This document shows, one piece after another, positions 38,933 through 40,293 of a DNA stretch of 44,739 bases (position 1 is its first letter; each line of letters begins with the position of its first letter). Source of the DNA: a virus. Taxonomy: Duplodnaviria > Heunggongvirae > Uroviricota > Caudoviricetes. Position numbers and translations under genes: made by a program. The notes under the pieces were generated by a model. That model had not been told where the DNA came from. It saw nothing but the letters and a program-made list of their open reading frames with translations, and did not search any database. The DNA is taken from the IMG/VR virus record IMGVR_UViG_2713896776_000002. One strand, 5' to 3'.

Positions 38933-39124
38933 TTAAGCCTTCGGGTCAATTCCGTTGCGCTTAAGCTCTGCTCTCCCAAGCTCTTTGAGCCAATTCCCTA
39001 AGCTAACACCTTCTTTTTTTGCTTGTGATTCAAACTGTTCTTTCAGTTCTGGTGAAATCCTGACATTGAACATCGGGGCTTTACCTGCCCCTTTAGGGCT
39101 TTTATCTCGCAAGATAGTTGACAT
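38933..39124 (-). CDS. Arc/MetJ-type ribbon-helix-helix DNA-binding protein
   Basis: PMFNVRISPELKEQFESQAKKEGVSLGNWLKEL matches the Arc-like RHH pattern (beta-strand then two helices); start codon uncertain (39124 or 39073). Confidence 0.5.
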   Translation of the reverse strand: MSTILRDKSPKGAGKAPMFNVRISPELKEQFESQAKKEGVSLGNWLKELGRAELKRNGIDPKA

Positions 39125-39125
39125 G

Positions 39126-39168
39126 TATAGACCTATAGCTTAGTGTTTGCTTATTAGGTCTATACCTT
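39126..39168. promoter_or_regulatory. Operator-like inverted repeats in the divergent promoter region (TATAGACC ... GGTCTATA)
   Basis: gtatagacctatag and ttaggtctatacc between the RHH gene and the divergent 39263 gene. Confidence 0.4.
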
Positions 39169-39262
39169 AACACAGGGAAAGGTCTAGAGAAACGGCCATA
39201 ACAAATGTTGCGAGCACTTGCTATGGCCTAACCAGTAAACCGTTATGCGTAGGATAACAGTC

Positions 39263-40006
39263 ATGGCTAATGATAAGTCTAACGATTCATTTGGAACAAA
39301 CCAAGAAAGTGTTTTATCTGCGGTGGTCAGTGGCGTGATTCACAGTTCTCACGCTAAAACGACATCGGAGGCCGAAGGCTTGGTTTCTTTGGGAAAGAAA
39401 ATATTTGCCTGTAAAGAGGAACTGCAACATGGTGAGTTTACGAACTTTCTTCACAGATGGCGCATAAACTTGCCCGATGCACGTAAAGCGATGCGAATCG
39501 CTCATGTGTTCGGCGGTGACACACCACGAGCCGCAATTGCCAAAACAGATATCGGCAAAACGAAGTTAAATCTGCTTGCCCGGCTGGATGAAGTGACACT
39601 GGATCTCCTTGCCAGTGGTGGGGCATATAACGACCACACGCTTGATGATATTCTTCGCATGAGCGCCAGAGAGTTGCAGCGCGTAATTCAATCTGGTGAA
39701 GATATTATTTGCGAAAGAACGCTAACCAATAAAGAGGATATCTCATCTTTGCCTGTTGAGGACGAGTTAGATAAAAAGGCAGGAATAAAACAATCAGGCC
39801 AAATCGAAGAGAATAAAAAGCAATATTGCCGCGAGTTACTCAAAGTGGCATTGCGTTATTCAGACGAAACCGAACTTAACGCAATAACAAAATTTATTGA
39901 ACATATGATTGCCTGTGCTCTGGCTGATAAATACAACCCCGGACTGAATGCTGCCAGTTATGAAGTTTATAATAAATTCGCTATTAGCCGGAGGGCTGCA
40001 CAATGA
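39263..40006 (+). CDS. Hypothetical protein
   Basis: ORF 39245-40006; ATG 39263 after AGGAT RBS; no recognised motif. Confidence 0.4.
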   Translation: MANDKSNDSFGTNQESVLSAVVSGVIHSSHAKTTSEAEGLVSLGKKIFACKEELQHGEFTNFLHRWRINLPDARKAMRIAHVFGGDTPRAAIAKTDIGKTKLNLLARLDEVTLDLLASGGAYNDHTLDDILRMSARELQRVIQSGEDIICERTLTNKEDISSLPVEDELDKKAGIKQSGQIEENKKQYCRELLKVALRYSDETELNAITKFIEHMIACALADKYNPGLNAASYEVYNKFAISRRAAQ

Positions 40007-40293
40007 AACAGGCTGAAACTCAAAATACTTTCCGTGCGATGCCGTCATTTTCACAAGGTGCCTCTGATGATATTATGTTTTTAAAGACTGATGCTAATCA
40101 GGAGTTAATTTACGACTCTGCCACCTACCGACTTGATGCAGTTCGTAAGCTACTTGATTTTGCGTCTACATTAGGTACGGATAAATCATGTGCATCCTCT
40201 GATGTTTCTATGGTTACGGATGCTGCTGGCATACTGGTTACTGATGCAATGGCGCTACTTGATGGATTGAGGAAAGACAGACGGCCTCAATAA
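40003..40293 (+). CDS. Hypothetical protein
   Basis: 96-aa ORF overlapping the upstream stop (ATGA). Confidence 0.35.
   Translation: MKQAETQNTFRAMPSFSQGASDDIMFLKTDANQELIYDSATYRLDAVRKLLDFASTLGTDKSCASSDVSMVTDAAGILVTDAMALLDGLRKDRRPQ

Follow-up and report, generated by a model that had tools for sequence, protein, structure and literature searches.

Results

A divergent gene module in a phage sequence

The viral sequence analysed here (Caudoviricetes; IMG/VR record IMGVR_UViG_2713896776_000002), called the window below and meant at its full length of 44,739 nucleotides, carries a small regulatory module at positions 38933-40293. The module consists of a gene for a predicted ribbon-helix-helix (RHH) repressor of 63 amino acids (aa) on the minus strand (38933..39124) and, divergent from it on the plus strand, the two overlapping genes p247 (39263..40006; 247 aa) and p96 (40003..40293; 96 aa). 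It lies within a discrete element of 7,754 bp with TG...CA ends (36986-44739), whose probable nature as a satellite of BcepMu-like transposable phages is the subject of this work.

A preliminary description of the locus, made from the nucleotide sequence alone, had proposed an Arc-like RHH gene divergent from a pair of genes of 253 and 96 aa. The open reading frames (ORFs) listed for the locus and the Pfam and PHROG matches of the RHH protein bear this arrangement out. The 253-aa ORF exists (39245..40006, plus strand), but the conserved start of the larger gene is the ATG at 39263, which is preceded by AGGA, is the start given in RefSeq and is common to five related elements; it yields a protein of 247 aa, in which a variable N-terminus precedes a DUF3102 core and a C-terminal domain peculiar to the satellites. 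The ATGA coupling of the two genes was read directly from the sequence at 40003-40006, and this 4-nt overlap is retained in every related element examined. The p96 gene, an orphan, is translationally coupled to p247.

The RHH protein matches Pfam HicB (3.5e-6; 27.3 bits against a cut-off of 21). Weak matches to Arc, RHH_1, RHH_5 and ParG cover the same residues 15-56, those to Arc, RHH_1 and RHH_5 lying below their cut-offs. The protein also matches the PHROG "Arc-like repressor" family (1.1e-6) and is named "HicB family antitoxin" in RefSeq. Its gene shows a ratio of nonsynonymous to synonymous substitutions (dN/dS) of 0.03-0.23. These profile matches identify the 63-aa product as a predicted RHH DNA-binding protein of the Arc/MetJ/CopG type.

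The HicB match above the Pfam cut-off and the RefSeq name might be taken to mean that the module is a toxin-antitoxin or addiction unit, in which the RHH protein neutralises a toxin encoded by the 253-aa and/or the 96-aa gene. RHH antitoxins that autoregulate through palindromes are indeed common. HicB antitoxins possess an N-terminal toxin-binding domain besides their DNA-binding domain, and it is the C-terminal RHH DNA-binding motif that the protein of the element has in common with them. A toxin-binding domain was not found here; 63 aa, with the best Pfam stretches at residues 15-56, leave little room beyond one RHH motif. Scans against Pfam, PHROG, PADLOC and NCBIfam detected neither HicA nor any other toxin family among the neighbours of the RHH gene, including p247 and p96. 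Moreover, the RHH gene is divergent from the two genes and not co-transcribed with them, p247 appears to be a DNA-binding paralogue of a conserved phage early protein, and a more toxin-like feature, a 27-aa TisB-like ORF, is found elsewhere in the element. The toxin-antitoxin-like function considered in the preliminary description is thus highly improbable.

Putative early promoter, operator and leader

The putative early promoter/operator region (39117..39186) was delineated from its repeats, a shuffle test and an alignment of five elements. The intergenic inverted repeats noticed earlier are present and turned out to be longer than reported, with a left arm GTATAGACCTA (39125-39135) and a right arm TAGGTCTATAC (39155-39165) of 11 nt each, 100% complementary and 19 nt apart, and a third half-site, AGGTCTA, at 39180-39186. 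When the 138-bp intergenic region was shuffled 5000 times with its dinucleotides preserved, a perfect arm of at least 11 nt arose in 11 of the shuffles. TTGACA at 39117-39122, a perfect -35 hexamer, overlaps the start codon of the RHH gene, and TTGACAT is invariant in the five aligned elements. With TAGTGT (39140-39145) as candidate -10, the left repeat arm lies within the promoter spacer and the right arm just downstream of the promoter; this promoter assignment is our own reading of the sequence.

Elements with an RHH protein 90-100% identical to that of the window keep GTATAGACC...GGTCTATAC. The CX21 type, whose RHH protein is 49% identical, carries a different palindrome, ATACGTACC...GGTACGTA, at the same position, and types with a 58-aa RHH protein carry yet other operator sequences. 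No other computational result speaks as clearly for control of the early promoter by the RHH protein as this covariation of repressor and operator, and it is strongly suggested that the RHH protein represses the divergent promoter, presumably via the palindromes. The part of the preliminary description that placed the pair under RHH control therefore fits the data.

The leader of the early operon (39194..39258, plus strand) has a hairpin at 39194-39228, and in a second, small one, GTTA-N-TAAC, the AGGA ribosome-binding site falls in the loop. Folds of the leaders of five element types (the window and the compared loci L004, L005, L009 and L013) place hairpins at equal positions in differing sequences, with one compensatory change between L004 and L013. 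RNAalifold found no pairs on the automatic leader alignment, which was poor, and single-sequence folds were used instead. The hairpins could be a site of translational or RNA-stability control.

Downstream of p96, a GC-rich terminator-like hairpin, GAAGCCCCTC-CTCT-GAGGGGCTTC (40310..40333, plus strand), closes the p247-p96 unit, as expected for the two-gene operon first described, and stays unchanged across six elements, including those with a differing p96 allele. The palindrome TAAAGCTTTATAAAG (40476..40490), about 40 bp upstream of the start of the following gene, which encodes a Mor-family activator, is invariant in the same way; both sites are kept despite diverging flanks. They are candidate terminator and activator sites separating two transcription units, the palindrome being a candidate regulatory site of the second. 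Since the hairpin after p96 and the palindrome before the Mor gene are conserved, p247-p96 would form a bounded unit that is followed by a second one comprising the genes for Mor, p204, p197 and the tape measure protein.

A mobile element of 7,754 bp

In a search of complete Escherichia coli genomes the region was found 100% identical in E. coli AW1.7, the shared sequence being confined to 36986-44739. The left boundary was set by comparison with two other insertions and an empty site (L002). The element starts with TGATTAGACATGAGATAAAT and ends with CGCGCGGTGGATCA. Its left end (36986..37045) opens with 5'-TG and carries a 9-bp motif that resembles a transposase site, G(A/C)GATAA(A/T)T, at 36997-37005 and 37020-37028; its right end (44680..44739) closes with CA-3', and the motif is present there in inverted form at 44697-44705 and 44720-44728. 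At either end the motif is hence found 12-20 and 35-43 bp from the tip, in inverted orientation.

Three insertions were resolved. The AW1.7 copy (L001, 18587-26340) splits the major capsid gene of a lambdoid prophage with the 6-bp duplication TGTCTT, a 93% identical copy in NZ_LR536431 splits a phosphotransferase system (PTS) transporter gene with the duplication TTCGGC, and the window copy lies within a 168-aa gene of an e14/HK97-type prophage, a gene that some 1,700 other genomes have uninterrupted. The duplication in the last case is GGTGCA, the right flank being visible in the IMG/VR contig L019. Intact duplications and copies that are 99.99-100% identical mark recent insertions. A metagenome contig of IMG/VR (L020; 7,799 bp) runs from tip to tip, and the window, too, stops exactly at the right tip; contigs ending at the tips are expected for DNA with heterogeneous flanks, or for multicopy or transposing DNA.

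Neither a transposase nor a MuB-like ATPase was found among the ORFs of 36986-44739 by inspection of the ORF list and by Pfam and PHROG scans. Since it has no DDE transposase or MuB-like ATPase of its own, the element is non-autonomous. We conclude that 36986-44739 is a non-autonomous transposable element of the BcepMu type. Its gene order is gp27' and RHH on one side, then the divergent p247-p96 pair, and then Mor, the protease homologue p204 (protease'), p197 and the tape measure gene.

In two of the three near-identical copies the insertion disrupts a structural gene of another prophage, namely a head/tail gene in the window and the major capsid gene in AW1.7, which may be due to chance or to a target preference; insertion into such genes inactivates competing prophages. 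The remainder of the window (1-36985) is a prophage with an e14/HK97-type head, the terminase, portal, protease and capsid genes lying at about 30100-35700. Its head region (30000-36986) is 98-99.8% identical to prophages in about 1,700 complete E. coli genomes. Tail-like genes stand at the start of the window, and the gene order suggests a rearranged or permuted contig.

A BcepMu-like prophage as candidate helper

Alongside the identical element, E. coli AW1.7 carries a full-length BcepMu-like prophage in adiA, with the termini TGATTAGACTTGAGATAAAT.. and ..ATTTATCGCGCGGCGCATCA (in full, TGATTAGACTTGAGATAAATGACAGGGGATAAGTGAGATAAT... and ...CCATTTATCTCACGG...ATTTATCGCGCGGCGCATCA) and the 6-bp duplication GTAGCT. 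The left end of the element is nearly identical to the Mor-proximal end of this prophage. Its right end is matched, at 77-80% identity, by full-length prophages of about 42 E. coli genomes, in each case by their invertase-proximal end. The target duplication measures 6 bp in the three element insertions and in the helper alike. One of the prophages in these 42 or so genomes, inserted in gadC (L007), is of the BcepMu transposable type, and its early operon encodes a Ner-like helix-turn-helix (HTH) protein, a DUF3102 protein, a DDE transposase and a MuB-like ATPase, with gp16 and Mor further on. Among 5426 complete E. coli genomes, 640 (about 12%) carry a transposase gene of the helper type. The presence of a compatible helper in the same host is plausible, judging from the one strain checked, AW1.7.

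Five proteins of the element have homologues in the helper, at identities of 45% for gp27' (aa 1-55), 30% for p247, 28% for Mor, 46% for p204 and 46%, over the full length, for the tape measure protein. RHH, p96 and p197 have no helper counterpart, even by profile search of the six-frame translation of the helper, and p114, the product of a small gene next to RHH, gave no tblastn match to it.

p247 is related to the DUF3102 protein of the helper

The preliminary description had called for homology and fold comparisons of both proteins of the pair; p247 was found to be a DUF3102 paralogue with a ParB/KorB-like fold, and p96 yielded no informative homologue or fold match. The match of p247 to Pfam DUF3102 (PF11300) is marginal (24.6 bits; cut-off 24.4), that to phrog_1748 reaches 2.3e-23, and the DUF3102 protein of the helper is matched by BLASTP at 4e-13 and by profile with an E-value of 4e-20. 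The BLASTP match spans residues 31-192 and leaves out about the last 65 residues. By these matches p247 is a paralogue of the helper DUF3102 early protein, whose gene stops 3 nt before the transposase gene. Homologues in BcepMu (gp10), phiE255 and B3 are all annotated as hypothetical, and p247 homologues come from Salmonella, Citrobacter, Enterobacter, Cronobacter, Yokenella, Erwinia and Intestinirhabdus. A 318-aa protein in the left arm of variant elements was considered as a further relative of p247 and was discarded since the comparison was not significant.

In the structure model, the core of p247 (about aa 35-145) matches a ParB/KorB-like HTH fold, with 6-17% identity over about 105-119 aligned residues to the DNA-binding domains of ParB/Spo0J and KorB. 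An N-terminal ParB/Srx domain for binding cytidine triphosphate (CTP) was found neither by Pfam nor in the model, and a profile search of p247 against PDB sequences gave no match; the likeness is for these reasons treated as a resemblance of fold only. The C-terminal domain (about aa 180-241) recurs in a 215-aa protein encoded upstream of a p96 homologue in a distant element (L028; hhalign 98.4%), and is retained in a truncated gene of E. coli sequence type 131 (ST131). Variation is greatest in the N-terminal third, into which the putative recognition helix falls.

As the first gene of an operon divergent from a repressor, encoding a protein with an HTH fold and a variable recognition helix, p247 might be a second switch regulator of the Cro/Ner type, which binds the same intergenic region and antagonises the RHH protein without any role towards the helper. 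The HTH type of p247 and the RHH/operator type, however, assort independently: L009 and L013 have the RHH gene and the intergenic region in common and differ in the HTH, and L004 and L013 have the HTH in common and differ in RHH and operator. A recognition helix that does not covary with the repressor and its operator argues against a simple Cro-like role. Moreover, the helper has a separate Ner-like HTH gene besides its DUF3102 gene. We therefore regard this explanation as unlikely.

p96 is an orphan protein with two exchangeable alleles

The p96 protein had no match in Pfam, PHROG, PADLOC or, by profile, PDB, and 23 of its relatives scanned against Pfam and PHROG gave nothing either. Only 25 cluster representatives were found in 1.84 billion proteins. 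The AlphaFold model shows a disordered N-terminus followed by a helical hairpin, and Foldseek retrieved generic helical hairpins only, all at E > 0.1. Within the conserved motifs, residues S17, R43 and D81 are invariant; S-Q-G stands in the disordered N-terminus, and R43 and LLSDA stand in the helical hairpin. Three distant homologues with contigs were examined, and each lies in a small Mor-carrying element. One of these encodes gp27', the 215-aa protein, the p96-like protein, Mor, the N-terminal domain of a Mu-like protease and a tape measure protein; another, found in Providencia, interrupts a fecCD gene, and its terminal motif is that of the window element.

Two divergent p96 alleles are exchanged between otherwise near-identical elements. 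Between the window and L003 (p96 at 15118-15393), identity is 100% for RHH, 94% for p247 and only 42% for p96, and between the window and the Yersinia element it is 96% for p96 and only 61% for p247. By these comparisons the 96-aa gene acts like a cassette that is open to exchange.

Interference with the helper is common among satellites, and swapped p96 alleles would be compatible with an arms race; p247 could, in addition, compete with the helper DUF3102 protein. The module might serve anti-phage defence or interference, with p247 and p96 blocking the helper or other phages instead of promoting transfer of the element itself. No PADLOC model was matched by RHH, p247 or p96, which speaks against the defence-like character first suggested, and the pair is the conserved core of the element at a constant position, rather than variable cargo. 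Interference and hijacking of a helper are not mutually exclusive, and the former is in part a sub-case of the explanation given below; as an explanation in its own right we assign it a low probability.

The element family in Enterobacterales

The same layout, with small regulators on one strand and p247-like, p96-like, Mor, 204-aa, 197-aa and tape measure genes on the other, was found in E. coli KCJ3K291 (in ybhJ), in E. coli CX21 and MS 115-1 (between sbmC and dacD), in Yersinia enterocolitica (three loci encoding one and the same protein) and in Pectobacterium. Across these genera the architecture is kept at 41-96% protein identity. The CX21 type occupies at least six different loci, and identical copies of the Yersinia type occupy three. 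In 31 of the 94 index blocks that list the CX21 type, the longest contig is only 5-10 kb. A scan of GTDB species representatives gave only five loci, and a DNA search of a phage collection with the module gave no match. Between members of the family dN/dS is 0.03-0.45 for every gene, and all genes of the element are under purifying selection.

About two dozen genomes of the ST131 type have a degraded copy (L006) close to the tRNA-Ser gene that follows infA. The left arm and the tape measure gene are missing from it, and an IS5 element adjoins; what remains is RHH, a 159-aa protein with the C-terminal domain of p247 only, p96, Mor in a long form, p204, p197 and the right end.

The designation of the module as self-contained cargo is not supported, because the pair belongs to the conserved core of an element family and the module provides the control and early functions of a mobile 7,754-bp element distinct from the surrounding prophage. 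The same observations bear on the question of whether the segment is a decaying deletion remnant of a BcepMu-like prophage, with the RHH, 253-aa and 96-aa genes as leftover early genes that no longer have a role. The helper homologues (the gp27 N-terminus, DUF3102, Mor, the protease N-terminus and the tape measure protein), the truncated appearance of gp27' and p204 and the existence of the degraded ST131 copy would be in line with such an origin. The gene orientations, however, differ from those of the helper, so that deletions alone cannot derive the element. Four genes (p96, p197, p114 and RHH) have no helper counterpart, the architecture is conserved across genera with dN/dS well below 1 in every gene, and recent insertions with intact duplications and nearly or fully identical copies are on record. 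A remnant is accordingly a quite improbable explanation.

Other genes and sites of the element

The gene gp27' (37126..37470, minus strand; 114 aa) matches Pfam Phage_Mu_Gp27 (3.6e-14) over profile positions 1-50 of 173. Its likeness to the small-terminase-like protein Mu gp27/DUF3486 is confined to residues 1-55, which correspond to the N-terminus of that protein and show the above-mentioned 45% identity to the helper DUF3486 protein; its dN/dS is 0.11-0.25. Further along, an unannotated ORF for a hydrophobic 27-aa peptide, MKGFLQIAVIALKAIVAFIELILACLP (37724..37807, minus strand), has a GGAG ribosome-binding site and a hairpin downstream (37676-37704). The peptide is 96-100% conserved at the amino-acid level in six other elements. 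Over 25 aa it aligns with E. coli TisB at 40% identity, with 64% positives (pairwise E 4e-4); a Pfam search with it gave no match. It may be a TisB-like type I toxin carried by the element. LexA boxes near this ORF and near the switch occur at chance level.

Perfect inverted repeats of 34 nt (37879-37912 and 38130-38163) enclose 217 bp in an ORF-poor stretch of 1 kb and are conserved in L005. The enclosed segment contains a strong promoter-like site, TTGAAT-16-TATAAT, on the minus strand and a terminator-like hairpin. These features look like an invertible switch or a miniature inverted-repeat transposable element (MITE). Among the few loci compared, all have the segment in the same orientation and no inverted copy was seen. 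The repeats were considered as substrates of the Gin-like invertase of the helper and rejected as such, being unlike its own gix-like inversion sites.

The p114 gene (38451..38795, minus strand; 114 aa) encodes a protein with an N-terminus that is RHH-like by eye only; Pfam, PHROG and NCBIfam gave no match, and dN/dS is 0.06 against L003. Three copies of the palindrome (A)GTGATAAATATTTATCA(CT), 35 bp apart, form an array at 38808..38896, and this TGATAAATATTTATCA array overlaps two promoter-like sites facing the 114-aa gene. It looks like a second, separate set of operator-like sites.

On the plus strand, the Mor-family transcription activator (40533..40889; Pfam Mor 1.7e-21; dN/dS 0.08) is followed by p204 (40932..41546), a homologue of the N-terminal protease part of the head maturation protease BcepMu gp32/Mu gpI. 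It matches phrog_976 (1.8e-45) over profile positions 31-173 of 415 and is 43% identical to BcepMu gp32. The satellite-specific p197 (41548..42141; dN/dS 0.09-0.21) has weak matches, below threshold, of its N-terminus to Pfam families of the coiled-coil type; a relationship to the protease/scaffold protein of the helper was considered and dismissed, as no similarity was found pairwise or by profile. The last gene encodes a tail tape measure protein of 825 aa (42174..44651; Pfam PhageMin_Tail 4e-19). Besides RHH, p247 and p96, also p114, p204 and gp27' were without a match in PADLOC, p197 giving only a coiled-coil-type match to LmuB at 0.0094. An NCBIfam scan yielded nothing useful, and an Rfam scan of the whole element nothing near threshold.

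Discussion

With a probability of about 0.6, RHH, p247 and p96 together make up the module for immunity and early control in a non-autonomous BcepMu-type element of 7,754 bp that we read as a satellite of BcepMu-like transposable phages. The element shows the hallmark of satellites in that most virion and replication genes are missing and genes related to regulation and morphogenesis of the helper are kept.

In the mechanism that we propose, dimers of the RHH protein would bind the 11-bp inverted repeat and the third half-site. Since these sites lie in and just downstream of the early promoter, binding would keep p247-p96 off, and it would probably autoregulate the RHH gene as well. On derepression, the coupled p247 and p96 would be made first, with transcription stopping at the hairpin 40310-40333. 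The p247 protein would bind DNA via its ParB/KorB-like HTH domain, and its satellite-specific C-terminal domain would work with p96. Together they might couple the satellite to the helper by engaging the helper transposition machinery at satellite DNA, or else act as an inducer of the anti-repressor type on the helper repressor. The unit of Mor, protease', p197 and tape measure genes would then act on late functions of the helper. We favour the link to the transposition machinery because p247 is a paralogue of a protein encoded beside the helper transposase gene; an anti-repressor action may be the alternative, by analogy with P22 Mnt/Ant and P4 epsilon.

Several points weigh against the satellite reading and the proposed mechanism. 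Dependence on a helper is deduced from the similarity of the ends and from co-residence in one strain, and the termini of the element are similar, not identical, to those of the AW1.7 helper, so that the true helper may be another relative. Contigs that end at the tips are only indirect hints of packaging, and movement within cells alone would be possible. The putative link of the RHH protein to the repeats is drawn from sequence; the -10 is weak, and the early promoter was not flagged when the region was scanned for consensus promoters. In p247, the putative recognition helix varies independently of the RHH/operator type, and p96 offers no informative homologue or fold.

More tentatively, the elements could be the first recognised family of satellites of BcepMu/Mu-like phages, which have neither integrase nor replicase and would achieve integration, replication and probably packaging solely via the transposase and the virion machinery of the helper, p247 mimicking the helper DUF3102 protein, with p96 as its partner, in a combined immunity switch and hijack device. 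This wider proposal is possible, and we hold it with less confidence than the satellite reading itself. No description of satellites or natural mini-elements of BcepMu/Mu-like phages was found in the open-access literature, which is not proof of their absence. A paper on the Pseudomonas helper-satellite pair AH14a/AH14b describes a satellite of 16.8 kb as analogous to P2-P4.

The BcepMu-like phages, among them BcepMu, phiE255 and E. coli prophages like that of AW1.7 in adiA, have matching terminal sequences with paired 9-bp repeats and the 6-bp duplication in common with the element, as well as homologous DUF3102, Mor, gp27 N-terminal, protease N-terminal and tape measure sequences. The divergent layout of repressor and early operon is also alike, the phage repressor gene being divergent from genes for a Ner-like protein, the DUF3102 protein, the DDE transposase and the MuB-like ATPase, with Mor further on. 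The element, however, measures 7.75 kb against about 34 kb, is without transposase, MuB-like ATPase, capsid, portal and terminase genes, and keeps the tape measure gene as its only tail gene. Its repressor is of the RHH type and not a CI-type HTH protein, and its early genes point towards the "late" end, unlike those of the phages.

Laboratory mini-Mu and other non-autonomous transposons likewise keep both ends and rely on a transposase in trans, which we infer for the element, and in both cases insertion looks random, with target duplications. Unlike laboratory mini-Mu, the element is a natural lineage, conserved in several genera, that has regulators of its own and a constant complement of genes under selection.

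Phage P4 has its own immunity, a delta activator of late genes (Ogr in its helper P2), the morphogenesis proteins Sid and Psu, and epsilon, which acts on the helper. The element resembles the P4/P2 pair in its small size, a predicted immunity of its own, its homologue of a helper late activator (Mor) and its morphogenesis-related protease' and p197, and its early genes may act on the helper as P4 epsilon does. It differs from P4 in that integrase and primase/replicase are missing, the regulator is of the RHH type, and the helper transposase would serve integration and replication. In P22 immI (Mnt, divergent from Pant-arc-ant), the gene of an RHH repressor and an operon are divergently arranged, the operon encoding a product that targets a second repressor, and the operator palindrome overlaps the promoter. 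Both the divergence of an RHH gene from an operon and the palindrome overlapping a promoter are found again in the element, but p247 and p96 have no sequence similarity to Ant.

Known phage satellites, such as the P4-like ones, phage-inducible chromosomal islands (PICI) including those of Staphylococcus aureus (SaPI), PICI-like elements (PLE) and others, have an integrase of their own and usually their own replication functions. If our reading is true, a conserved satellite lineage, present in several genera, that uses the transposase of its helper for both integration and replication would represent a new way of parasitising phages and a natural counterpart of laboratory mini-Mu. A gene annotated as "HicB antitoxin" would, in the reading proposed here, encode the repressor of the element. 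The module also gives a handle on DUF3102, a conserved and unstudied protein encoded beside the transposase gene in phages of the BcepMu, phiE255 and B3 types, and p96 defines an orphan protein family that marks these elements in the loci examined. With two of the three near-identical copies lying in structural genes that belong to other prophages, competition between prophages may likewise be influenced by the element.

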